Assembly (NCBI GenBank): GCA_027004715.1
Contig: JALTHG010000089.1
Coordinates: 1-45,716, forward strand
DNA: 45,716 bases
Direction of reading: 5' to 3'
DNA from: Deltaproteobacteria bacterium
GTDB lineage: Bacteria; Desulfobacterota; Dissulfuribacteria; Dissulfuribacterales; UBA3076
This document shows, in pieces, positions 25,377 to 36,983 of the stretch. Under the pieces are notes generated by a model. That model made no database searches. It saw only the letters and a list, made by a program, of their open reading frames with translations, and had not been told where the DNA came from. The translations under genes and the position numbers were made by a program. Each line of letters begins with the position of its first letter. Position 1 is the first letter of the stretch.

Positions 25377-26510
25377 GTGTCAGCTACGTATTTTTTCTCT
25401 ATAAGTGTCCTCTTTTTTCTCTGGCTCTTTACATGTGGGGCCCTTGTGCTTTCTTTAAAGAGATATAGATCCTCTAGCGAGCCCTCATCATTCTATTCAG
25501 ACCTACTTATAGGACTTGCATCAGAAAAATACCGGGAGGCAATAGATGCCTCGAAGAGATTGCGAGAGGTAGCTGATGCCCTACATATAGGTCTTGTAGA
25601 GCTTAAAGGCAGGCAGATAAAACAGATGAACCAGAGTGCCCTTGACCTGATGTCAAAAGATATACAGGCCCTTACTGAGACCCTGACCTCATTGGATAGA
25701 GACGTCCCAAAGACCATTGAGCTAAATAAGAAAATAGTCCAACTGAAGCGTCTCTCCAGCCCTGGTTCTCAGGACCTGATCCTGATACAGGATGTCACAG
25801 AGAGCTTTCTTATGGCACGAAGGCTCAGGCAACAGGAAAAACTGGCACTCTTGGGACAGATGGCTGCACATATGTCACACCAGATAAAGACTCCTATTGC
25901 CATAATAGCAGGACAGATACAGATGCTTGCAAGACACCTTGGCAGTGATGCAGGCCTCAAGGAGCAGGCCAATGCCATCTACCAAGATGCAAGAGAGCTC
26001 GCCAGACAGATAAATGAGATCTCAAATTTCTACAGAAAGAGAGAGCCCTACTTCAGAGATACAGAGCTCTGCCAGATACTCGTTAAACTAGAAAAGAGGC
26101 TGGATCCCTTAAGAGGTTCCTGTAAAATCGACATCAAATGCCCTCAAAAAATTGTATTAGAGACCGATCCTAAACTCCTACAGAAGGTCCTGTTTCTCCT
26201 TGGGCAAAATTCGCTCTCAAGAGAGACTGGTGCTACTATCCTCTCGATCAATGCAGGACTAGAAGATAATCAGGTCTCCATCAGGGTAAAAGATAATGGT
26301 ACAGGCATACCCAAATCTATACGCGACAGGGTCTTTGAGCCCTTTGTCAGCACAAAGGAAGAGGGACTTGGGCTGGGTCTCTTTCTTGCCAGAGACCTGA
26401 CCCGGCAGATAGGGGGCGAGATAGAACTAGAGGAGACCGATAGGGGCACCTGCTTTGCTCTAAAAATCCCTGTACGTCGTCATCCTCTCTGTGTCAGTTA
26501 CGTTATGTGA
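25377..26510 (+). CDS. Sensor histidine kinase (orphan)
   Basis: N-terminal TM, EKLALLGQMAAHMSHQIKTP H-box, VKDNGTGIP G1, VFEPFVSTK F box, GLGLGL G2. Confidence 0.88.
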   Translation: MSATYFFSISVLFFLWLFTCGALVLSLKRYRSSSEPSSFYSDLLIGLASEKYREAIDASKRLREVADALHIGLVELKGRQIKQMNQSALDLMSKDIQALTETLTSLDRDVPKTIELNKKIVQLKRLSSPGSQDLILIQDVTESFLMARRLRQQEKLALLGQMAAHMSHQIKTPIAIIAGQIQMLARHLGSDAGLKEQANAIYQDARELARQINEISNFYRKREPYFRDTELCQILVKLEKRLDPLRGSCKIDIKCPQKIVLETDPKLLQKVLFLLGQNSLSRETGATILSINAGLEDNQVSIRVKDNGTGIPKSIRDRVFEPFVSTKEEGLGLGLFLARDLTRQIGGEIELEETDRGTCFALKIPVRRHPLCVSYVM

Positions 26511-26524
26511 ATTATGGACGCAAG

Positions 26525-26691
26525 GCAACTGCTCACATCCCCCGGCCAGCAGTAGCCTTTTTCAGGGTTTCAGAGCACACCTTGATGCACAAAATCAGAC
26601 ACTTTGCCCGTTAATCCGCACTGGACCCCTTCAAAATGCTACTGCTGGCCAGCGACGTAAACGGTTCAACAGGAGGGGGTTGAACAGTTAC
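26525..26691 (+). mobile_element. Full-length (167-bp) family-A MITE with IS66-like termini
   Basis: IRs GCAACTGCTCACATCCCC and (minus strand) GTAACTGTTCAACCCCC; flanking 8-mers GACGCAAG (26517-26524) and GATGCAAG (26692-26699). Confidence 0.85.
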
Positions 26692-26767
26692 GATGCAAGA
26701 GACTTGACAGTATCCCAGATATTGGCTCCTATGTCTTGAGGTCCCAATTCGAGATAGAAGATGTGTT

Positions 26768-27406
26768 ATGAGGGATATTGATACATACACTGGGCCAGAG
26801 GTCATAGAGAGGTGTTCCTTTGAGATCATTGAATCTGAGGTGCCTGAGCCCCGTCCCTTTAAGGGCAGTGAATGGCTTGTAGTCAGGAGGATGATCCATA
26901 CGAGTGCCGATTTTGAATTGCTATCCCTTGTCAATTTTCACCCTGATGCAGTCAGGTCCGGTATCGTGGCCCTGAGGTCAGGGTGCCTGATTGTAACTGA
27001 TACAGAGATGGCACATATGGGGATTACCTCAAGACGTATGGACCAATTGGGGTGTCGGGTTGAGTGCTACATAGGTAGGAGAGAAGTAAGGGAAAGGGCG
27101 CAAGAGAAGGGTATTACCAGGGCATCCGCGGCAGTTGATTATGCCCTGCCCAGCTTAGACAGGGCTATATATGTCGTAGGGAATGCCCCCACGGCCCTCT
27201 TGAGGCTTCTGGAGTATATCAGAGAGGGTGCATGTAATCCGGCGCTCATCGTGGGTATGCCAGTGGGCTTTGTGAATGCGGCCAGGTCCAAAGAGATGCT
27301 TATGGAGCAGGAAGGTATCCCATTTATCACTATTGAAGGACGCAAAGGGGGATCGGCCCTGGCCGCATCTGTGGTAAACCAGTTGGCCGAGATGGCCCTG
27401 GCGTAA
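26768..27406 (+). CDS. cbiC: Cobalt-precorrin-8/precorrin-8X methylmutase (CbiC/CobH)
   Basis: IERCSFEII, RRMIHTSAD, GNAPTAL, GMPVGFVNA, GRKGGSALAA. Confidence 0.93.
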   Translation: MRDIDTYTGPEVIERCSFEIIESEVPEPRPFKGSEWLVVRRMIHTSADFELLSLVNFHPDAVRSGIVALRSGCLIVTDTEMAHMGITSRRMDQLGCRVECYIGRREVRERAQEKGITRASAAVDYALPSLDRAIYVVGNAPTALLRLLEYIREGACNPALIVGMPVGFVNAARSKEMLMEQEGIPFITIEGRKGGSALAASVVNQLAEMALA

Positions 27407-27434
27407 CCATTCACATCCTGACAGAGTCTAAGAG

Positions 27435-28217
27435 ATGAAAAAGATATATCTTATCGGAATTGGACCTGGCAACCCTGATTATCTGACTGTCCAGGCAATA
27501 AACGCAATGAAGGAAGTAGATGTCTTTTTCATCCTTGAAAAGGGACGGCGAAAGGGATTTAAGGACTTTACTGAGATAAGAGAGGAGATATTAGAGAGGT
27601 ATCTGGATAGAGGGACATACAGGCTTGTGAGTGCAGAGATACCTGAACGTAAAAAGGGGGGTGACTCATATAGGGAAGGAGTCAGGTCATGGCGTAGACA
27701 GAAGGCAGAGGTTATCACTGGACTGATCAAAGACAAGATGAAGGACGGTGAGATCGCTGCCCTTCTCATCTGGGGAGATCCATCCCTGTATGATGGGCAT
27801 CTAGAGATCCTTCAAGATATCCTGAAAGAGGGGAGAGTAAGTTTTGAATATAAGGTGATACCTGGCATAACCAGCGTCCAGGTATTAGCAGCAAGGCATA
27901 AAATCCCTTTAACCCATATAGGAGAATCTGTTGTGATTACAACGGGCAGGAGATTAGAGAGATATAGGCCTGCTGAGATCAAAAATGCCATTGTATTATT
28001 AGATCCTGATTCCAGGTTTGATTGTTTCAAGAATTCGAATATGGATATCTATTGGGGCGGATATTTAGGAACTGGAGATGAGATCCTGTTTTCAGGGAAG
28101 TTAAGAGATGTAGTCGAGGACCTCAAAGAGATAAGGAGTGAGGCCAGAAAGAGAAAGGGTTGGATTATGGATACATATATTTTAAGGCGGTCGGAGGACC
28201 CAGAGACTAATGGATGA
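27435..28217 (+). CDS. cobF: Precorrin-6A synthase (deacetylating)
   Basis: IGIGPGNPDYLTVQA, WGDPSLYD, IPGITSVQVLAARHKIPL, ITTGRRL, IYWGGYLGT.DEIL and the CobF-typical C-terminus GWIMDTYILRR. Confidence 0.9.
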   Translation: MKKIYLIGIGPGNPDYLTVQAINAMKEVDVFFILEKGRRKGFKDFTEIREEILERYLDRGTYRLVSAEIPERKKGGDSYREGVRSWRRQKAEVITGLIKDKMKDGEIAALLIWGDPSLYDGHLEILQDILKEGRVSFEYKVIPGITSVQVLAARHKIPLTHIGESVVITTGRRLERYRPAEIKNAIVLLDPDSRFDCFKNSNMDIYWGGYLGTGDEILFSGKLRDVVEDLKEIRSEARKRKGWIMDTYILRRSEDPETNG

Positions 28218-28244
28218 TCCTGCATATTGGAGAGGAATTGAGGT

Positions 28245-29462
28245 ATGAGGCAGGTCCACATAGTAGGATTGGGTCTGGATCCCCAGGACCTGCCCTACAA
28301 AATCTCACAGAAGATTGCAGGGGCACAGGTGCTGGTAGGGGGGCAGAGGTTCCTTGATTTCTTTAAGGACCATCCTGCAGTCAAGGTGGCAATCCACTGC
28401 CCTCTCAACGATATCATCAAGGGCATCAGGAGGGAAATAGAAGAGAAAAGGGATGTAGTGGTCCTGGCTGACGGTGATCCTGGATTTTATGGTATTGGAA
28501 GGCGCCTTGTAGATGCCCTTGGTAGAGATAATGTCATTATATATCCCAATATAACTACACTCCAGGTAGCGGCTTCCAGGCTTAAGATAGCATGGCACGA
28601 CATAAGATCTGTCTCTCTACATGGTCGCCAGGATATACAGGCCCTGTTGAGGGCACTTGTCAGAAATGACCGTGTGGCAGTATTTACTGACCCAGACTTT
28701 CCTCCGGCCAGGATAGCAGATGAACTGGTCCGCCGTGAGATAGACAGCTTTGACATGTATGTATTTGAGAGACTCTGTACTGAATCTGAAAAAATAGGCC
28801 GTTTTGGACTAGAAGAGGCCAGAAAAGCGGCCTTTTCTTCACCCAATTTTGTCCTTCTGGATCGTATAAAGTGGCCACAAGTCCCCCTGTGCCTGGGTCT
28901 GAGAGATGAAAGATACCTGCATCAAAAGGGCATGATCACCAAGAAAGAGGTCCGGGTAGCAGGTCTTGCCGCTCTTGAGATCAGACCTCATCACACCCTG
29001 TGGGACCTGGGTGCAGGCTGTGGGTCAGTGGCCATTGAGGCATCTATCCTGGCCAATCAGGGAACAGTCTTTGCCGTGGAGAGGGCAATTGACAGGGTCA
29101 AGTTGATCCGCGAGAATATCAAGAGGACCGGTGCCTATTCAGTAGAGGTAATACAGGGAGAGATGCCTGGGTGTCTGGATGCCCTTCCTGATCCTGATGG
29201 GGTCTTTATTGGTGGAGGCATAGGAAGAGACACCAGGGTGCTAGAAGAGGCGTGCAGACGGCTGAGGCCTGGTGGAAGACTCGTGCTTCACTTAGTCCTT
29301 ATGGGCTCACTGGCACGGGCAAGGAATTACATAGACCTCTTAGATTGGCCTTTTTCCATCACTCAGGTACAGGTCTCCAGGTCTAAAGCTACAGGAGGTG
29401 ATCAGCGCCTCAGGGCCCTAAATCCGGTCTTTATCCTGAGCGCCACAAGACCAGATGAATAG
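28245..29462 (+). CDS. cbiET: Fused precorrin-6B C5/C15 methyltransferase (CbiE-CbiT, CobL-like)
   Basis: DGDPGFYGIG and SLHGR (CbiE); ITKKEVR, WDLGAGCGSVAIE, FIGGG (CbiT). Confidence 0.92.
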   Translation: MRQVHIVGLGLDPQDLPYKISQKIAGAQVLVGGQRFLDFFKDHPAVKVAIHCPLNDIIKGIRREIEEKRDVVVLADGDPGFYGIGRRLVDALGRDNVIIYPNITTLQVAASRLKIAWHDIRSVSLHGRQDIQALLRALVRNDRVAVFTDPDFPPARIADELVRREIDSFDMYVFERLCTESEKIGRFGLEEARKAAFSSPNFVLLDRIKWPQVPLCLGLRDERYLHQKGMITKKEVRVAGLAALEIRPHHTLWDLGAGCGSVAIEASILANQGTVFAVERAIDRVKLIRENIKRTGAYSVEVIQGEMPGCLDALPDPDGVFIGGGIGRDTRVLEEACRRLRPGGRLVLHLVLMGSLARARNYIDLLDWPFSITQVQVSRSKATGGDQRLRALNPVFILSATRPDE

Positions 29463-30210
29463 CTGTCAGGTATATTTTATTGGTGCCGGTCCTGGAGACC
29501 CAGAGCTGATTACTGTCAAAGGACAGAAGTACATACAGATGGCTGATCTCGTCCTGTACACAGGTTCTCTTGTACCCAGAGAGGTTGTGGCCTGTGCAAA
29601 GGAAGACGCAGAAGTGGCTGACTCATCGTCCATGACACTGGATGAGATCCATGGCATGATCTTGAAGACCGTCAGGTCTGGTGGTATGGTGGCCCGTGTA
29701 CATACAGGTGACCCTTCCCTTTACGGGGCCATAAAAGAACAGATGATCCTCCTTGATCGGGATGGCATCAGTTATGATGTCATCCCTGGCATTACTTCAG
29801 CCTTTGCAGCGGCCGCGGCGGCAAAGGTATCTTTTACCCTGCCAGGAAAGAGCCAGTCCCTTATCTTCGCAAGGCTTGGGAGACGGACCCCTGTGCCCAA
29901 AAGAGAGTCCCTTAAAGAGCTTTCGCGATCAAGGTCCTCTATGGCTATCTATCTTTCATCTGCTGATCCCATGGCAGTACAGAGGGAACTGATAGAAGGG
30001 GGCTATCCCAAAGATACAGCAGTGGTCATAGGCTACAGAATAGGCTGGCCAGATCAGCGGATAATTACTACAGACATCTCTTCACTTGCAAGGGATATCA
30101 GAGATGCAGGGATCAAGAGGCAGGCGGTCTTTCTGATCCTGCCAGGCCAGGAGGGTGATCCTGTATTCTCCAGGCTTTATAGCCAGGACTTTTCTCATGG
30201 CTTCAGATAA
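29455..30210 (+). CDS. cbiF: Precorrin-4 C11-methyltransferase (CbiF/CobM)
   Basis: FIGAGPGDPELITVKG, YTGSLV, RVHTGDPSLYGAI.EQ, SRLYSQDFSHGFR. Confidence 0.94.
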   Translation: MNSCQVYFIGAGPGDPELITVKGQKYIQMADLVLYTGSLVPREVVACAKEDAEVADSSSMTLDEIHGMILKTVRSGGMVARVHTGDPSLYGAIKEQMILLDRDGISYDVIPGITSAFAAAAAAKVSFTLPGKSQSLIFARLGRRTPVPKRESLKELSRSRSSMAIYLSSADPMAVQRELIEGGYPKDTAVVIGYRIGWPDQRIITTDISSLARDIRDAGIKRQAVFLILPGQEGDPVFSRLYSQDFSHGFR

Positions 30211-31247
30211 TGAAAGAGACTGCAATATATGCCATCACGCGCCAGGGAGCAGGCCTGGGAAGGGCCCTTACAGAAAGAATAGGGGCCGATCTCTTCTTGC
30301 CTTCTCGTATTGCAGAGGCCTATGGAGGCATTGCCTTTGATCGTCTCGTAGAGGCCGTGGCCAAAAACTTTTTTCTGTATCCGAGACAGATATTTATAGC
30401 GGCCACAGGGATCGTGGTCAGGTCCATTGCGCCTCTCCTGCGGTCCAAAGATTCAGACCCTGCAGTAGTCGTGCTTGATCAGAGAGGAAGGTATGTCATC
30501 AGCCTGCTTTCAGGACATCTGGGTGGAGCCAATGCCATGGCGCAAGAAGTGGCCCAATTGACTGGTGGAGAGGCCGTGATTACAACTGCCAGTGATACAG
30601 AAGGAGTACCTTCCATTGATCTTATAGCAAAGGAGCGCAATCTATCTATATCCAATCTGGTAGCAGTAAAAAAGATCAATATGGCCATACTTGAGGGCAG
30701 GCCTGTCCAGATATTTGATCCAGAAGATCAACTGGGCCTGAAAGACACAGATATACCTGGACTGATCGAGGAGCGGATTGAGAAAGAGGCGCAGTATGAT
30801 ATTGAGGCCCCAGGAGTATGGGTCACCTGGAGGCGTAAGACACATCTTGGAGATGGCCTGTTGTTCCTCTATCCAAGGTGCCTTGTTGCAGGCATAGGTT
30901 GCAATAAGGGAGCGACGAGACAGGAAATCGTCGATCTGATTAAGGCCACATTTCAGAAAAATTCCCTTGCCCTGGAGAGCCTGAAGTGCATCTGCACTAT
31001 AGAAGGTAAGAGGGATGAAAGGGGCCTTATCGACGCCGCCCTTGAGTTAGGTGTGCCGCTCATATCTGTAGACCCCTCTGAGATCAGATCTATTGCTGTG
31101 CCCCACCCTTCAGAGATTGTTAAGAGACATATAGGAGTCTTGAGCGTATGCGAAGCCACCGCTATACTGAAATCAAAGAAAGGCAGGCTCCTGGTCCCCA
31201 AGACCAAGGGCCTAAATGTTACCCTGGCCGTGGCCCTGGAAAGCTGA
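30210..31247 (+). CDS. cbiG: Cobalt-precorrin-5A hydrolase
   Basis: ATGIVVRSIAP, KDSDPAVVV, LSGHLGGAN, ITTASD, GIGCNKG, SVCEATA; full-length N-, mid- and C-domains. Confidence 0.92.
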   Translation: MKETAIYAITRQGAGLGRALTERIGADLFLPSRIAEAYGGIAFDRLVEAVAKNFFLYPRQIFIAATGIVVRSIAPLLRSKDSDPAVVVLDQRGRYVISLLSGHLGGANAMAQEVAQLTGGEAVITTASDTEGVPSIDLIAKERNLSISNLVAVKKINMAILEGRPVQIFDPEDQLGLKDTDIPGLIEERIEKEAQYDIEAPGVWVTWRRKTHLGDGLLFLYPRCLVAGIGCNKGATRQEIVDLIKATFQKNSLALESLKCICTIEGKRDERGLIDAALELGVPLISVDPSEIRSIAVPHPSEIVKRHIGVLSVCEATAILKSKKGRLLVPKTKGLNVTLAVALES

Positions 31248-31996
31248 GCATAGTCAGTCTTGGTCCTGGTGACCCACAATATCTGGCCCCAAAGGCCCGG
31301 ACCGCCCTTATGCAGGCCGAAGTCATTGTGGGATATAAGACCTATATAGACCTCATTGAGCCAGGACTTCTTATAGGGAAAGAGATAATTTCGACAGGTA
31401 TGACAAAGGAGCTCGTCCGATCTCAGACAGCTATTGATAGGGCCTGTCAGGGAAAGGACACGGCTGTGGTCTCAAGCGGTGATGCAGGCATATACGGGAT
31501 GTCTGGATTGGTGCTGGAACTCCTGGCTGAACAGGGCCTCATGGGGGAACTGGAAGTGGAGGTGATACCAGGTATCTCGGCCCTGTCTGCTGCTGCTGCC
31601 CTCTTGGGCGCTCCACTGATGCACGACTTTGCCGTCATCTCTCTGAGTGATCTCATGGTTCCTTGGGAGATGATTCGGCAGCGGGTAGAGGCCGTGGCCA
31701 GGGCCGATTTTGTCCTGGTTATTTATAATCCCAGGTCTAAAAAAAGAGACTGGCAATTAGAAGAGGTGCGAGAATTGATCCAGAGATATCGAGGTGACCA
31801 TATACTGGTGGGAATTGTGAGAAATGCTATGAGACAGGGACAATCTGTAGAGATCGTGGCACTCTCAGACCTGGATGTAACAGGTATAGATATGCTTTCT
31901 ATCGTTGTAGTAGGCAATTCCAGGACCCGATTGATAGGCGAGAAGATGGTGACTCCAAGGGGATACCTGGAAAAGTATGCTGTCAGGATTCTATAA
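31244..31996 (+). CDS. cbiH: Precorrin-3B C17-methyltransferase (CbiH/CobJ)
   Basis: SLGPGD, VGYKTY, SSGDAGIYGM, GAPLMHDF, SLSDL, YNPRS, TPRGY; start uncertain (CTG 31244 overlapping the cbiG stop, or ATG 31148). Confidence 0.9.
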   Translation: MSIVSLGPGDPQYLAPKARTALMQAEVIVGYKTYIDLIEPGLLIGKEIISTGMTKELVRSQTAIDRACQGKDTAVVSSGDAGIYGMSGLVLELLAEQGLMGELEVEVIPGISALSAAAALLGAPLMHDFAVISLSDLMVPWEMIRQRVEAVARADFVLVIYNPRSKKRDWQLEEVRELIQRYRGDHILVGIVRNAMRQGQSVEIVALSDLDVTGIDMLSIVVVGNSRTRLIGEKMVTPRGYLEKYAVRIL

Positions 31997-32549
31997 GATT
32001 GCCCCTGTCTCTCTTTACTACCAAGGGGATGCCCGCCAGTATAAAGACCACCTCTTTGGCCAGGCATGTAAGCTGTTGATTTAGATAACCGAGTGCATCT
32101 CGATATCTGCGTGATAGGCGATCTTCAGGCACGATACCCATGCCTACCTCATTACTGACTATTACTACGATCCCCTGGATATGCATCAATATCTGTATCA
32201 GGTCCTCTATGGCCTGGTCAATTGTCTCAAGCTCCTCCCCATACTTCATAAAGAGATTGTTGAGCCAGAGGGTCATGCAGTCAATCAGGATGACCGTATC
32301 CCTGCCGTCAAGCGCATGGACAGCGGTAGCTACATCGATTGGTTCCTCTATTGTCTGCCACTTGTCTCCACGCTCTGCCTGGTGGTGCTCTATGCGTGCC
32401 TTCATTTCCTGATCCAGGGCCTGCGCAGTGGCCAAAAAGATACATCTCTTCTCCTGGACATTACATAAATCCAGGGCAAAGCGACTCTTTCCACTCCTGG
32501 CACCACCCAAGACAAATATGCATCCCTGTTGAATCATATCCACTTCCAT
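31983..32549 (-). CDS. cobU: Adenosylcobinamide kinase/adenosylcobinamide-phosphate guanylyltransferase
   Basis: GGARSGKS, RIEHHQAER, LIDCMTLW, VSNEVGMGIVP; the start may be 32537. Confidence 0.95.
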   Translation of the reverse strand: MEVDMIQQGCIFVLGGARSGKSRFALDLCNVQEKRCIFLATAQALDQEMKARIEHHQAERGDKWQTIEEPIDVATAVHALDGRDTVILIDCMTLWLNNLFMKYGEELETIDQAIEDLIQILMHIQGIVVIVSNEVGMGIVPEDRLSRRYRDALGYLNQQLTCLAKEVVFILAGIPLVVKRDRGNLIES

Positions 32550-32611
32550 ATCCCTGGCCAGGGGTCCCAGTACAGATCAACAGGCAGATCCCCTGCCTCT
32601 CTTTTGGTGCC

Positions 32612-33256
32612 CTAGTCCTCCCAGTCTGTACGGATCCTCTGTATTACCTTTTGCATATACTGGAGCCTGTCAGAGGGACAGACCCCCAAGAGAGGTGACC
32701 CCTGTTCCACTATGTCACCTGAGCGAAAATAGACCTTATACAGTACGCCAGGTTCCCCTCTATAGCTTATCGGCGTATCTCTCTTCATAAGAGACATGAT
32801 CACTACCTCATCTCCAGGTCCTATGGCTATCCTGGCTTCAGGCCGTTTCTCCAGCCCAGCCAGGATATCAGACGACAGAAAATATCTGGCCTGTTGCGGG
32901 GCACGAAGGATAGTAAGCATCTGGGTCAGGATCCGATCAATTATCTCTTCTCTATCCAGGCGGTGTCGGATAAAGAGGACCAGCTCATCCGCCTCCACAA
33001 AGTGCCCTTCAAGCTCAGAGCGTATTCCAGTTACCTGGCCCTTCCAGGAGGCATAGATCCTCTTTGCATTTTTCTCTCTTTCCAGTATATAGAGCAGAGT
33101 ACCAGGACGTTGTAGCCACCTTCCACTCGGTCCTTCGACCGCCTGTCCCTCCTCTACCTCAAAAGATATGACCCCAGTATGGGGTGTCTTTACCTGATAG
33201 TCCTCAAATATATGAGAACGATAGTGCCTCAAGAGGTCATCCAGATTTATGCCCAT
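32612..33256 (-). CDS. Atypical biotin carboxyl carrier protein with two biotinyl/lipoyl-like domains
   Basis: C-terminal domain GDEVVIMSLMKRD...GDIVEQGSPLL carries an MK motif; third gene of the carboxylase operon. Confidence 0.7.
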   Translation of the reverse strand: MGINLDDLLRHYRSHIFEDYQVKTPHTGVISFEVEEGQAVEGPSGRWLQRPGTLLYILEREKNAKRIYASWKGQVTGIRSELEGHFVEADELVLFIRHRLDREEIIDRILTQMLTILRAPQQARYFLSSDILAGLEKRPEARIAIGPGDEVVIMSLMKRDTPISYRGEPGVLYKVYFRSGDIVEQGSPLLGVCPSDRLQYMQKVIQRIRTDWED

Positions 33257-33260
33257 GGAC

Positions 33261-35540
33261 TTACCTATAATAGAGATTGTGCCCGCCCATTGTTGTCAGC
33301 GCCTCATACAGGTTCTTTCTAAAGTCACGTCTGTCCCAGATCCCCTGGATATGACCTCTCTTGAGGGCATTCTTGGCACTGTGATAGTCAGGGGGGACAT
33401 TCTTACCTGTAGTCTCTCTTATGACCCTTGGTCCAGCAAAACCGATCCTGGAGGAACGTATTCCAAACTGATAGAGTGAACATCCCAGAAAACTGGCCAC
33501 AGGACCTGCATAGGAATTGTTGTCATAGACTACTATGTAGAGCCCTCCACTCTCGATATATTCCCTCACTGCAATGGTACACTTTGGCATCTGTACTACA
33601 CCAAGGGTCCCCTCCTGGATACGGATGCCTCCAGTAGTATGTACATAGGCCAGAAAAGGCCTCCTGGTAGTCCTGGCTATATCACACGCCCTTACAAATT
33701 TTTCTCCTTCTGCAGTACCTACTGTCCCCCCTCTAAAGCTGCCAATCAACATGGCCACTACCAACCTTATGCCAAATACCCTGGCATCAAAGGTAATTAT
33801 ACTGGACGTCCGGCCAGTACGCCTGATGTCTCTCCTGAGGCGCTCATCAAAACCCTGAAATCCAAGGGGATTGCCAGACGCTATATGATTATTGAATTCC
33901 TGGACCGAGCCTTTATCAAAGAGATTCTTGAGATACCACTGGTACTCAAGGGGAAAGTGGTGACCGCAGTTTGGACAGACCCCACAAAGCTCTCCATATA
34001 GATCAGGTACCCACAGGTCCATGCACCCATATTTAGATGCATTGGGACAGGTAACCGTACGGTCTTCATTCGCAAGAGGACTGACATAGGGCTCCCATTC
34101 CTCAGCAAAGATCGATCTACGGTCTGGTCCATCTGGACGTATGACCTTTGCAGGACGTCTTGGCTGAGGAAAGACAAAGTCATAGGCTGCCCTGACAGGC
34201 TCAGCTACCTTCTTGAAAAATACTGAACCCTCACCAGAGACCTCTTCTATCACCTTTTGGACATTTCGGTGGTGTAGCCTGAGGAGACCATATCTCAGCT
34301 CATAATAGCCCTTACTGGCAATGGCCTTGGCCTTTCTGAATTTTTGACCCAGTCCCCTGCTCTTTTTGAGGAAAAAGCCCTTGCCCAATTCCCTATACTT
34401 CTTGGACCTGAGCTCTAGAAGCCGTTCTATCTCAAGCTCTGTGAGGTTCCAGTTGATGACTAAATCAAAGTCCTCTGGGACACTCACCTTCTCTTCTCCC
34501 TGTCTCTTCAGGGCATAGGCCCTGAATGCACGAAAGTTTTTGGTCCTCAGGACTACCTCGTCGGTGGCACGTACCATCTCATAACGGAGCCTGCGGAAAA
34601 AGCCATAGTCTTCCCGTCTTGCCCCAAGGGGGGGCTCTTCTACTATCCGATCAATAGTACCCAGTTTCAGGTTGTCAGAGGCGGTTATCTTCAGCTGGCT
34701 TGCGCAGTGCTCCACAAGGTCTCTGGGGAGCTTCTCTCCCTCCCTTATCTTTCCCTCTATGGCAGCTGCGCCTTCTGGAGATATGACTGAATAGTAGCCC
34801 CTTGAGGCCATGAGCCTGAGATCTGAGAGCCCTATTGCCTCTGCACCACCAGAACCACCCTCTGATATAAAAGAGACTATAGGGACCTTTAGCCTTGCCA
34901 TTGCATATATATTGCGGGCTATCTGCTGTGCGGCTCCTGGATAGTCCTCTATGGGATATGCGCCAGGGGTAAAGATAAAGGAGTGTATAGGGATGCCCTC
35001 GGTCTCGGCCACCAGCATATATCTCAGGGCCTTATCATTTCCCCACGGCCTGGCACACCCCCCATTCCGATACTCTTCTCCCCGGCCCTTTTCATGCCCT
35101 ATGACCATGACCTGATGACTATAGAGCCTGTTTTTTACCTTCCTCGAGATAGTGGCCCTGGCTACCACTACTGCAGGATCAATATTGCATTCTCCCTCGC
35201 CACCCAACTCTGTATAGGAATCATACACGTTCTCCAGTATATCTGTAAGTGTGAAACGCTGAACACTCCTCACAATATTTACTACCTCTGCAGGGGTGAG
35301 TCTCCTGGCAATCCTGTCTTCCAGAAAGGAGACTCGATCCTCAATCCGGTCGATTTCCTTATAGAGTTCTGCCTCCTTTATCTCAAAGAGGGAGCGGTGA
35401 AGGTCCTGGACCTGTCTCTGGAGTTCATCCAGATTGCCCCAGGTGCTCTCTCCTTTTATATCTATGAGATATGAAATTCGATCAGCGAGCCGACTAAGTA
35501 ATTTTCCACTATCTGTCATATGTACCTGGTCTATATGCAT
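33261..35540 (-). CDS. Acyl-CoA carboxyltransferase, alpha-beta (AccA-AccD) fusion
   Basis: N-half FTPGAYP, EGGSGGA, YYSVISPEGAAAI (AccA-like); C-half CPN...C...CPNCGHHF zinc finger, GGTVG...GEKF, GGIRIQEG, IGFAGPRVIRET (AccD-like). Confidence 0.88.
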   Translation of the reverse strand: MHIDQVHMTDSGKLLSRLADRISYLIDIKGESTWGNLDELQRQVQDLHRSLFEIKEAELYKEIDRIEDRVSFLEDRIARRLTPAEVVNIVRSVQRFTLTDILENVYDSYTELGGEGECNIDPAVVVARATISRKVKNRLYSHQVMVIGHEKGRGEEYRNGGCARPWGNDKALRYMLVAETEGIPIHSFIFTPGAYPIEDYPGAAQQIARNIYAMARLKVPIVSFISEGGSGGAEAIGLSDLRLMASRGYYSVISPEGAAAIEGKIREGEKLPRDLVEHCASQLKITASDNLKLGTIDRIVEEPPLGARREDYGFFRRLRYEMVRATDEVVLRTKNFRAFRAYALKRQGEEKVSVPEDFDLVINWNLTELEIERLLELRSKKYRELGKGFFLKKSRGLGQKFRKAKAIASKGYYELRYGLLRLHHRNVQKVIEEVSGEGSVFFKKVAEPVRAAYDFVFPQPRRPAKVIRPDGPDRRSIFAEEWEPYVSPLANEDRTVTCPNASKYGCMDLWVPDLYGELCGVCPNCGHHFPLEYQWYLKNLFDKGSVQEFNNHIASGNPLGFQGFDERLRRDIRRTGRTSSIITFDARVFGIRLVVAMLIGSFRGGTVGTAEGEKFVRACDIARTTRRPFLAYVHTTGGIRIQEGTLGVVQMPKCTIAVREYIESGGLYIVVYDNNSYAGPVASFLGCSLYQFGIRSSRIGFAGPRVIRETTGKNVPPDYHSAKNALKRGHIQGIWDRRDFRKNLYEALTTMGGHNLYYR

Positions 35541-35570
35541 CCAGATTAACCGTTCAGTGCCTAAAGGCGA

Positions 35571-36983
35571 TCAAAATTGAAGTATGTATCCAATCCTGTC
35601 GTAGAGATAGTCCAGATTTGTGACAATATTTTCGCCCTCCATCCCCTTGCCCTCTATAACGATTCCCCTCTGAAACTGTCTTGCCCTCTCTTTGGCCTGC
35701 TCTGTATCCTGTCCCCAGATAATGACAAGGGCAAGGTTTGGGTCATACTCTGTAGGGATCTTATATGGGATGTCTCTAGGTACGTGTGAATAGACCCTGG
35801 CCCATGGCCTATCTAGATAATCAAAACGTGTAATAGTACCACACCAGGGCACAAAGCCCCTATTGGTATTCTCTGCAACAATCCTGAGTTCTATGCTGGT
35901 ACCCTTAAAAGATACATCATCTTGAGTAAAGCCCAGTCTGTCCCCAAGGGCTACCCTTATCTGTTCTCTGATCAGATTTGTGGGTCCTGTAGCCCCCTTT
36001 ATCCTGGAGATAGAGGCAGAGATCTCGTTTTCTACCTGTATGCGGGTATTGACCTCCATGAGATAGGGACTACCGTCCCTGGACACTATCCATTCCCAGG
36101 TCCCTATATTGTCATAACCAACATGACCTGCCATACGCACAGAATACCTCACTATCTGATCTAATACCCCTTTTGCATCAAAGGGATATTTACATACTGC
36201 AGGGTCAAACCCAGGGGCCACCTCTACCCTCTTTTGCCTTCCTGTGCTCTGTATAGTGCAGTTCCTGGTCCCAAAGTGCACTACCTCGCCATGAGAGCTA
36301 CATAAGAGCTGCACCTCAAGATGTTGATAGTCTCTTAGACACTGTTCTATAAGTACCCCTTCATCGCCAAACTGCCGCTTGGCATAGTTCTGTATCTTTC
36401 TGTAGACCATCCTGAAGGTATCAAGACGGCTGACCTCTTCAATACCCATACCTCCACCACCAGCAGACGCCTTTACCAACACAGACGGATGCTGGATTCC
36501 CTGCTCTTTTTGGAGAAAGAAGAGCTCTTCTGCTACTCCTTCTGCCTCCATCTCATTATAGATCGATCTATCAGAGCCAGGAATTACTGGTATATGGAGC
36601 TCTTTGGCCAGACGTTTGGTATTGATCTTACTGCCCAGATCTCTTATGACTTCCCACCTGGGGCCTATAAAAGTGAGGGGCCTGGTCCTCATGGTGGCCC
36701 TCCTTGCAAAACCAGAATTTTCAGCAAAAAAACCATATCCAGGGTGTATGGCAGTACATTTGGCCTGGTCTGCCACTGAGAAGATCTCATTGGGATCTCT
36801 ATAGTTCGATATGCGATAGGCCCTTTTGAGATCGTTTTCTTTCTGTGCAAGTCGGACGTGCAGAGAGGACTTGTCCTCCTCTGTGTACACGACCACATAG
36901 TCCAGGCCCAGGTCCTTACAGGCCTGCATTATGCGTATGGCAATCTCTCCACGGTTGGCTATTAATACGCGCTCCCTACTCAT
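35571..36983 (-). CDS. Biotin carboxylase (divergent AccC-like)
   Basis: LIANRGEIA, HPGYGFFAEN, KASAGGGGMG, HLEVQ, EVNTRIQVE, ELRIVAE. Confidence 0.9.
   Translation of the reverse strand: MSRERVLIANRGEIAIRIMQACKDLGLDYVVVYTEEDKSSLHVRLAQKENDLKRAYRISNYRDPNEIFSVADQAKCTAIHPGYGFFAENSGFARRATMRTRPLTFIGPRWEVIRDLGSKINTKRLAKELHIPVIPGSDRSIYNEMEAEGVAEELFFLQKEQGIQHPSVLVKASAGGGGMGIEEVSRLDTFRMVYRKIQNYAKRQFGDEGVLIEQCLRDYQHLEVQLLCSSHGEVVHFGTRNCTIQSTGRQKRVEVAPGFDPAVCKYPFDAKGVLDQIVRYSVRMAGHVGYDNIGTWEWIVSRDGSPYLMEVNTRIQVENEISASISRIKGATGPTNLIREQIRVALGDRLGFTQDDVSFKGTSIELRIVAENTNRGFVPWCGTITRFDYLDRPWARVYSHVPRDIPYKIPTEYDPNLALVIIWGQDTEQAKERARQFQRGIVIEGKGMEGENIVTNLDYLYDRIGYILQF

Follow-up and report, generated by a model that had tools for sequence, protein, structure and literature searches.

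What does a cobF gene do between cbiC and cbiET, at the place that cbiD holds in other cobalamin (vitamin B12) operons of anaerobic type? This question is raised by positions 26768–31996 of contig JALTHG010000089.1 (assembly GCA_027004715.1, Deltaproteobacteria bacterium), which was analysed over a stretch of 45,716 nucleotides (nt), called the window below. In the anaerobic route, the C2 unit leaves as acetaldehyde through the action of CbiG before CbiD methylates C1, and in the aerobic route CobF methylates C1 and the acetyl group is lost, according to the account of the two routes within PMC7242693. Our comparison suggests that the CobF of the window, a member of an anaerobe-associated lineage, probably does the work of CbiD, to which it is unrelated, in a CbiK-dependent, oxygen-independent pathway that is ordinary in other respects. 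Strong comparative evidence indicates that this swap of CobF for CbiD in anaerobes is real and recurrent. The host is an uncultured relative of sulfate reducers, and the swap recurs in many other anaerobes.

The cobF gene and the pathway genes of its genome

Genes were named by NCBIfam and Pfam scans of the translated open reading frames (ORFs) of the window. Six co-directional ORFs on the plus strand stand in the order cbiC-cobF-cbiET-cbiF-cbiG-cbiH and are followed by a convergent cobU (lengths in amino acids, aa; SAM, S-adenosylmethionine):

26768–27406, plus strand: cbiC, (cobalt-)precorrin-8 methylmutase, 212 aa (PF02570, 253.6 bits)
27407–27434, no strand: spacer between cbiC and cobF, 28 nt
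27435–28217, plus strand: cobF-family class III SAM-dependent tetrapyrrole methyltransferase, 260 aa (TIGR02434, 311.5 bits)
28245–29462, plus strand: cbiET fusion, C5 and C15 methyltransferase/decarboxylase, 405 aa (TIGR02467, 157.5 bits; TIGR02469, 114.6 bits)
29455–30210, plus strand: cbiF, C11 methyltransferase, 251 aa (TIGR01465, 298.6 bits against a cut-off of 259.65)
30210–31247, plus strand: cbiG, cobalt-precorrin-5A hydrolase, full length, 345 aa (PF11760, PF11761, PF01890)
31148–31996, plus strand: cbiH, C17 methyltransferase and ring contraction (TIGR01466, 313.2 bits)
31983–32549, minus strand: cobU, adenosylcobinamide kinase/guanylyltransferase (NF004469, 197.4 bits against a cut-off of 161; PF02283, 204 bits)

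An earlier reading of this DNA, made from the sequence only, had given the same operon order with a full-length cbiG and no cbiD in the window, and the ORF list and the family scans agree with it. The cbiG product has all three domains, CbiG_N, CbiG_mid and CbiG_C. The coordinates also reproduce the layout described there, in which cobF is set off by gaps of 28 nt on the cbiC side and 27 nt on the cbiET side and the genes from cbiET on overlap one another (8 nt between cbiET and cbiF, 1 nt between cbiF and cbiG).

The cobF product matches the family of CobF, precorrin-6A synthase, over its whole length. It scores 311.5 bits against TIGR02434, over model positions 1–250 of 250 and with a curated equivalog cut-off of 195.8, and it aligns at full length with the solved CobF structures 2NPN (184 bits, residues 1–252) and 3ND1 (170 bits). 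It is a class III methylase (PF00590, 107 bits) with conserved GxGxG and GDP motifs, shows no PF01888 (CbiD) match and has no sequence relationship to CbiD. A scan of the window for the N-terminal motif of CbiD, including the spacer between cbiC and cobF, gave no match. The guanine-plus-cytosine (GC) content of cobF is 43.2% (43.7% at third codon positions, GC3) against 50.3–52.1% in five neighbour genes, which puts cobF at the 3.6th percentile among the 832 ORFs of the genome that have 250 aa or more. This dip is moderate, and it bears out what had been a hand-counted spot check in the earlier reading. The ratio of nonsynonymous to synonymous substitution rates (dN/dS) of the window cobF against its relatives is 0.14–0.24, and cobF ratios lie at 0.12–0.43 in 36 of 36 pairs; judged by these ratios, cobF is under purifying selection.

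The window is contig C89 of its genome (G000), which comprises 1,448,073 bases in 100 contigs and is 92.77% complete, and family searches were made on the six-frame translation of the whole genome. For CbiD they gave no PF01888 match, and tblastn with a CbiD from the window's family (f1) gave none either. CobG, CobN and CbiX had no match in the six-frame searches, which did not extend to CobS, CobT and CobZ, and CbiJ/CobK (PF02571) had none in the same translation. On the other side of the ledger, CbiK (PF06180, 245 bits) adjoins CbiL (TIGR01467, 235.8 bits) on contig C20, and tblastn placed CbiA and CobQ on contig C55 and detected no second copy of any cbi gene in the genome. Since CbiK, CbiL, CbiA and CobQ are present and CobG and CobN were not found, the gene set is cobalt-early apart from CobF. 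The sequence-only reading had allowed for an intact cbiD or a complete aerobic pathway elsewhere in the genome; in this assembly no cbiD, cobG or cobN turned up, and of the cobalt-early genes that it had listed for the same search, CbiK and CbiL were found and CbiX and CbiJ gave no match. The genome is small for its family, 1.45 Mb at 92.8% completeness, and its relatives measure 1.3–3.6 Mb at mostly similar completeness.

Distribution and history of cobF in the cbiD slot

The arrangement cbiC-cobF-cbiET-(cbiL)-cbiF-cbiG-cbiH was found in 11 genomes by tblastn maps. They comprise three relatives from the family (G012, G001 and G010), five genomes from other families of the phylum (G134, G253, G301, G247 and G237), G061, and two Nitrospirota (G062 and G473). 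At exactly the same place the CbiD-type genomes G024, G075 and G419 carry cbiD (cbiC-cbiD-cbiET-...). Thus, the uniqueness of cobF in the cbiD slot that the sequence-only reading had implied does not hold, because at least five families of the phylum sample share the arrangement, as do relatives of a Nitrospirota genome.

CobF and CbiD are nearly mutually exclusive. Among the 21 genomes of the window's family, six have CobF only, six CbiD only, three both and six neither, and the last six are also without CbiG and CbiC. Of 40 genomes from the other families of the order, none has CobF and 38 have CbiD. CobF exceeded the cut-off in 12 genomes of an even sample of 401 Desulfobacterota, 10 of which gave no CbiD match; setting aside G000, nine of the remaining 11 have no CbiD match, one has a remnant only and one (G075) an intact CbiD, and CbiG_N is present in all 11. 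In G301, a genome closed in one contig and 100% complete, CobF fills the slot and CbiD has no match. For 81 relatives of the Nitrospirota genome G062, the counts are 16 with CobF and 35 with CbiD, both occurring only in G466, so that 15 of the 16 CobF genomes are without CbiD. All these counts are given without a statistical test, because related genomes are not independent.

Where this CobF comes from can be seen in its relatives. The closest CobF loci in named genomes are those of Seep-SRB2 (75% and 71% identity), Thermodesulfobacteriota (68%) and Nitrospirae bacterium GWF2_44_13 (56%), and the CobFs of aerobic Alphaproteobacteria, Pseudomonas and Actinomycetota come next at 45–52%. In a collection of 5.8 billion proteins clustered at 90% identity, the best 120 clusters listed are all at least 55% identical to the window CobF and are all automatically annotated as 'precorrin-6A synthase (deacetylating)'. 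The names among these 120 are Deltaproteobacteria, Candidatus Desulfaltia, Eth-SRB1, Thermodesulfovibrionia/Thermodesulfovibrionales, Nitrospirota, Candidatus Desantisbacteria and Seep-SRB2.

Two maximum-likelihood trees of 89 and 74 rows were rooted on CbiL, with the 164-aa fragment L093 left out, identical rows merged and the aerobic rows of the second tree thinned to 30. In both trees the aerobic-route CobFs form one clade (100 in the Shimodaira–Hasegawa-like approximate likelihood ratio test, SH-aLRT; stem of 0.65–0.67 substitutions per site), and the window CobF and all other CobFs of anaerobe context fall outside it. The label 'aerobic-type', which the sequence-only reading had given to this CobF, is therefore not borne out; the phylogeny and synteny that it had proposed to compare put the gene in an anaerobe-associated lineage with the same slot in relatives. 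These trees exclude a recent import of the window CobF from an aerobe. Under the CbiL rooting, the anaerobe CobFs are a basal grade with the aerobic clade nested inside, and a single clade of anaerobe CobFs was not rejected by the approximately unbiased (AU) test (p = 0.566). The test does not separate one clade from a basal grade, and CobF evolution may have run in either direction. We mention only tentatively, as an idea more doubtful than probable, that the CobF family may have begun in anaerobes as a cobalt-precorrin-5B C1-methyltransferase and may still spread among them as a cassette of one gene that replaces cbiD, the aerobic deacetylating CobF being a later offshoot. The CobF of G000 is the longest terminal branch of the family group in the trees.

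The two groups of CobF were also compared by residue, in an alignment of 134 anaerobe-type and 77 aerobic-type sequences. The same residue is at least 85% conserved in both groups at 68 positions, the GxGxG and GDP motifs included. After an LYD motif, 115 of the 134 anaerobe-type sequences have GH and 66 of the 77 aerobic-type ones have ST, and the window CobF bears the signature LYD-GH-LE. His122 was considered as a generic cobalt-handling feature and rejected, as His is missing from the corresponding position of CbiL, CbiF, CbiH and CbiE of G000 itself. The CobF of G075 (L122:6873-7640) belongs to the aerobic clade as sister to a Tagaea sequence and lies about 760 kb away from and outside the cbi cluster; this closed genome keeps an intact cbiC-cbiD-cbiET-cbiL-cbiF-cbiG-cbiH operon.

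The operon backbone and cobF appear to have travelled separately. The backbone closest to that of the window is found in the CbiD-type genome G419 (L129), whose order is cbiC-cbiD-cbiET-cbiF-cbiG-cbiH with cbiD in the slot, and the identities to the window are 69% for CbiC, 59% for CbiET, 66% for CbiF, 51% for CbiG and 61% for CbiH. For the CobF-bearing operons of G134, G253 and G061, the flanking proteins are 39–52% and the CobFs 68–71% identical to those of the window (in G134, 71% for CobF and 39–52% for its neighbours). CobF is thus far more conserved between lineages than the genes that flank it, and the histories of backbone and cobF are therefore discordant. In G012, G134, G253, G061, G001 and G006, cobF has a GC content of 36–40% within operons of 44–56%; no such dip was seen in the low-GC genomes G301 and G247, nor in G062. 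The synonymous divergence (dS) among the cobF genes of G061, G134 and G253 is 0.13–0.21.

A possible scar of cbiD is kept in G253, where an ORF of 31 codons with the CbiD N-terminal motif has its stop directly ahead of the cobF ATG (L121:6472-6564). The motif is present in 5 of 5 CbiDs, has a single occurrence in the 195 kb that make up 19 CobF loci and is absent from the six-frame translation of the 1.45-Mb G000; this count is not independent, because the motif was written after the G253 match had been seen, and the match of G253 to the hidden Markov model (HMM) was independent but weak. The motif scan of the CobF loci found a remnant in G253 only. The hits of a full-length tblastn search for cbiD remnants in CobF loci were all artefacts of an over-extended ORF of L120. 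The cbi clusters of G253 (L121:5414-6463) and G134 (L125:10877-11806) also contain an ORF of 349 aa, next to the remnant in G253, with 45% mutual identity and a 27%-identical relative in G000 (C90:17199-18029). It was considered as a candidate for the missing reductase and rejected, having no Pfam hit and a sequence that reads to us, by eye, as a hydrophobic multi-pass membrane protein; its product is possibly a transporter.

The operon of the window differs from the gene set native to its family. CbiD-type species of the family have a dispersed set with a cbiD-cbiET pair and a CbiG, 33–47% identical to the window proteins. Their native CbiG is found in open frames of about 630–670 aa and so is fused to something else; the window CbiG stands alone with 345 aa. 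The nearest named relatives of the window CbiG are those of Desulfatiglans and NaphS2 (60–65%). The divergent, dispersed set of the sister species and a CbiG like that of Desulfatiglans and NaphS2 suggest that the cobF operon entered the family as a block. Mosaics are found as well. G006 (97% complete) has a window-type cbiA-cbiC-cobF with a native CbiG and no CbiD, and G009 has a reduced operon copy beside the native set and seems to be caught between the two gene sets. The G009 loci (L110, L109) include a natural cobQ-cbiC fusion ORF of 729 aa; another ORF of G009, of 501 aa, consists of the greater part of cbiF joined to the final 34 codons of cbiG and to cbiH, and cbiET is absent.

Taken together, the slot itself, the G419 backbone, the composition and history of cobF and the G253 remnant support a displacement of cbiD by cobF in the slot, as the sequence-only reading had proposed. 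What does not stand is that this took place in the family's own operon, since the native gene set of the family is another one. In our scheme, a low-GC cobF would have spread laterally among anaerobes as a single gene and would have overwritten cbiD, in its place between cbiC and cbiET, in two or more distinct operon backbones. The operon of the window would be one such overwritten backbone, distinct from the dispersed CbiD-type set of its family.

The predicted reaction and its alternatives

It is most likely that CobF methylates C1 of cobalt-precorrin-5B after the action of CbiG and thereby is a non-homologous replacement of CbiD. In the proposed pathway, CbiK would insert cobalt, CbiL, CbiH and CbiF would methylate and contract the ring, and CbiG would open the lactone and release the C2 unit. 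CobF would then move the C1 methyl onto cobalt-precorrin-5B to give cobalt-precorrin-6A, and CbiET and CbiC would complete cobyrinic acid. As CbiG is kept wherever CobF occupies the slot, the simplest reading is that CobF transfers the C1 methyl only.

Several points weigh against this assignment. Cobalt-precorrin-5B is named as the substrate only from the CbiK and CbiG that are present and the CbiD that is absent, and the absence of cbiD from G000 alone is not proven because the genome is 92.8% complete. CobF and CbiD occur together in G009, G019 and G020 of the family and also in G466 and G075; the CbiD of G009 has an in-frame TGA, and G019 and G020 are 83% and 75% complete and 5% and 4% contaminated. 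Of 17 other genomes with CobF, 10 have CobN-family genes. The cbiD remnant of G253 has a weak HMM score (20.1 bits, E 5e-4 per genome), and a similar N-terminal remnant of 41 codons lies in G486 (L130) in a decaying cluster without cobF. CbiJ/CobK (PF02571) was matched in 0 of 61 genomes of the order, CbiD-type and CobF-type alike; the sensitivity of this search is uncertain because only 2 of 14 control genomes matched, and the section of PMC545781 on this step describes CbiJ as a known gap in delta-proteobacteria. Finally, no RNA runs carrying the locus were found, and the runs that carry it are DNA runs labelled hydrothermal vent metagenome, one of them perhaps the source of the assembly. 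As to G486 itself, its cbi cluster has truncated cbiA and cbiG and has lost cbiC and cbiET, which looks like ongoing loss of the pathway.

How much room do these points leave for other explanations? On a cobalt substrate, CobF might carry out the entire reaction known from the aerobic route, C1 methylation together with C2 loss, and CbiG would then serve for lactone opening only or be partly redundant. The characterised activity of the CobF family is methylation with deacetylation, as the part of PMC7242693 on the aerobic route has it, and the window CobF matches TIGR02434 strongly at the family level. This explanation is nevertheless unlikely, because the full-length, three-domain CbiG kept here and the CbiG_N of all 11 other CobF genomes in the phylum sample argue that CbiG is needed for C2 extrusion. 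It is quite improbable that CobF is a passenger or has a function other than at C1, with an organism that makes a C1-desmethyl corrinoid, uses an unrecognised methyltransferase or salvages. An engineered pathway without cbiD reportedly gave 1-desmethyl-cobyrinic acid, to go by the title of a 2005 report of Roessner, which would fit such a corrinoid; CbiJ is missing too, so that enzymes yet to be recognised do exist in the pathway, and the CobF of G075 coexists with an intact cbiD operon. Against a passenger stand the exact slot in at least 11 genomes, the near-exclusive distribution of CobF and CbiD in two phyla and the purifying selection on cobF, and the G075 copy is a different case, as it falls in the aerobic clade and lies apart from the cbi cluster.

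A late-cobalt route, in which CobF would act on metal-free precorrin-5 and a CobN-type chelatase would insert cobalt late, draws on the CobN-family genes mentioned above, which in G395 (C7), G247 (C1) and G006 (C7) lie about 10–12 kb from the cbi/cobF genes. But G000 has no match to the CobN family or CobG, CbiK adjoins CbiL there, the other 7 of the 17 CobF genomes are also without CobN, and the CobN family matches anaerobic-route controls too (Bacteroides thetaiotaomicron, Methanocaldococcus jannaschii and Methanosarcina acetivorans). To our knowledge, moreover, no metal-free intermediate is known to undergo ring contraction independently of oxygen, and we hold such a route to be very improbable. 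In G006, the contig with the CobN/Mg-chelatase-family gene also carries a TonB-dependent receptor. The explanation that deserves the least credence is an incomplete-bin artefact, with cbiD on an unassembled contig and CobF just an extra gene. The 92.77% completeness of G000 in 100 contigs and the three family genomes with both genes would allow it, but CobF occupies the cbiD position within an intact operon, the closed and 100% complete G301 has a slot CobF and no CbiD, and CbiD has no match in 9 of the 11 CobF genomes of the phylum sample and is missing from 15 of the 16 that were found in the relatives of G062. The replacement of CbiD by CobF at C1 methylation thus is the reading that we prefer.

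Some features around cobF may be added. The window CbiC is 80–81% identical to the CbiC of the family relatives G006, G010 and G012, and its score against NF004057 (205 bits) is under the equivalog cut-off of that model. The cbiH gene has no canonical start near the onset of its family match; the sole in-frame ATG is at 31148, which gives an overlap of 100 nt with cbiG and lets the family match begin at residue 33 of the ORF. A start at CTG 31244 gives an overlap of 4 nt, and at this position relatives carry a TTG start that overlaps the cbiG stop; the real start may be CTG 31244. An Rfam scan of the whole window at gathering thresholds found three tRNAs only and no cobalamin riboswitch, and a scan of 26400–32700 for promoters and terminators gave counts not above those of shuffled sequences. 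Beyond cobU, window positions 32612–36983 on the minus strand hold an ORF of 759 aa that joins AccA-like and AccD-like carboxyltransferase halves, with a biotin-carrier-like ORF of 214 aa and an AccC-like biotin carboxylase as neighbours, all of them under the equivalog cut-offs.

Relation to known systems

CobF is treated as specific to the aerobic route in the relevant passages of PMC545781, PMC4303638 and PMC8269236. In the open-access literature, supplements not covered, we found no paper that describes an anaerobe with CobF in the slot of CbiD, and the main text of Murali 2023 (PMC10553843) has no mention of CobF or CbiD. The anaerobic CobF lineage is sizeable (at least 55% identity in the 120 best clusters listed), and therefore counts that use CobF as an aerobic marker would mislabel anoxic producers. 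Pathway-completeness calls that require CbiD would also wrongly score these organisms as B12 auxotrophs, which bears on vitamin-dependency arguments such as those for methane-seep consortia (PMC10553843). If our reading holds, an enzyme family of known structure would gain a new range of substrates, with GH versus ST as a two-residue signature. Cases in which a non-homologous gene displaces another slot for slot are rare, and this one would be well documented, scar included; it may also bear on the origin of the aerobic pathway.

The window CobF shares with aerobic CobF (TIGR02434; 2NPN, 3ND1) the family, the fold class and the conserved core of 68 positions. It differs in its cobalt-early context of cbiK and cbiG in a genome in which CobG and CobN were not found, in its place outside the aerobic clade, in having GH instead of ST after LYD, and in a presumed substrate that would hold cobalt and would already have lost the C2 unit. 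With CbiD, on the other hand, it has in common the slot between cbiC and cbiET, presumably the reaction, and a distribution in which the two nearly exclude each other, whereas there is no sequence relationship, the window CobF being a class III methylase of PF00590 without a PF01888 match.

The reverse swap has been suggested before: a passage of PMC3621897 proposes that CbiD stands in for a missing CobF in aerobic-route settings, on plasmid pCMU01 of Methylobacterium extorquens and in Streptomyces. As far as that passage goes, the case is like that of the window in treating CobF and CbiD as interchangeable at C1 methylation, and unlike it in its opposite direction and in being a suggestion without slot-for-slot operon evidence. 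Similarly, an annotation rule in Magnusdottir 2015 (PMC4403557) permits 'CobF or CbiD' in either route. In the portion of that paper that gives the rule, CobF in a cobalt-early route is formally covered, but as a rule only, and none of its gut genomes had CobF. In the operons described here, a CobF of the anaerobe-associated lineage probably does the work of CbiD in the very place of its gene.

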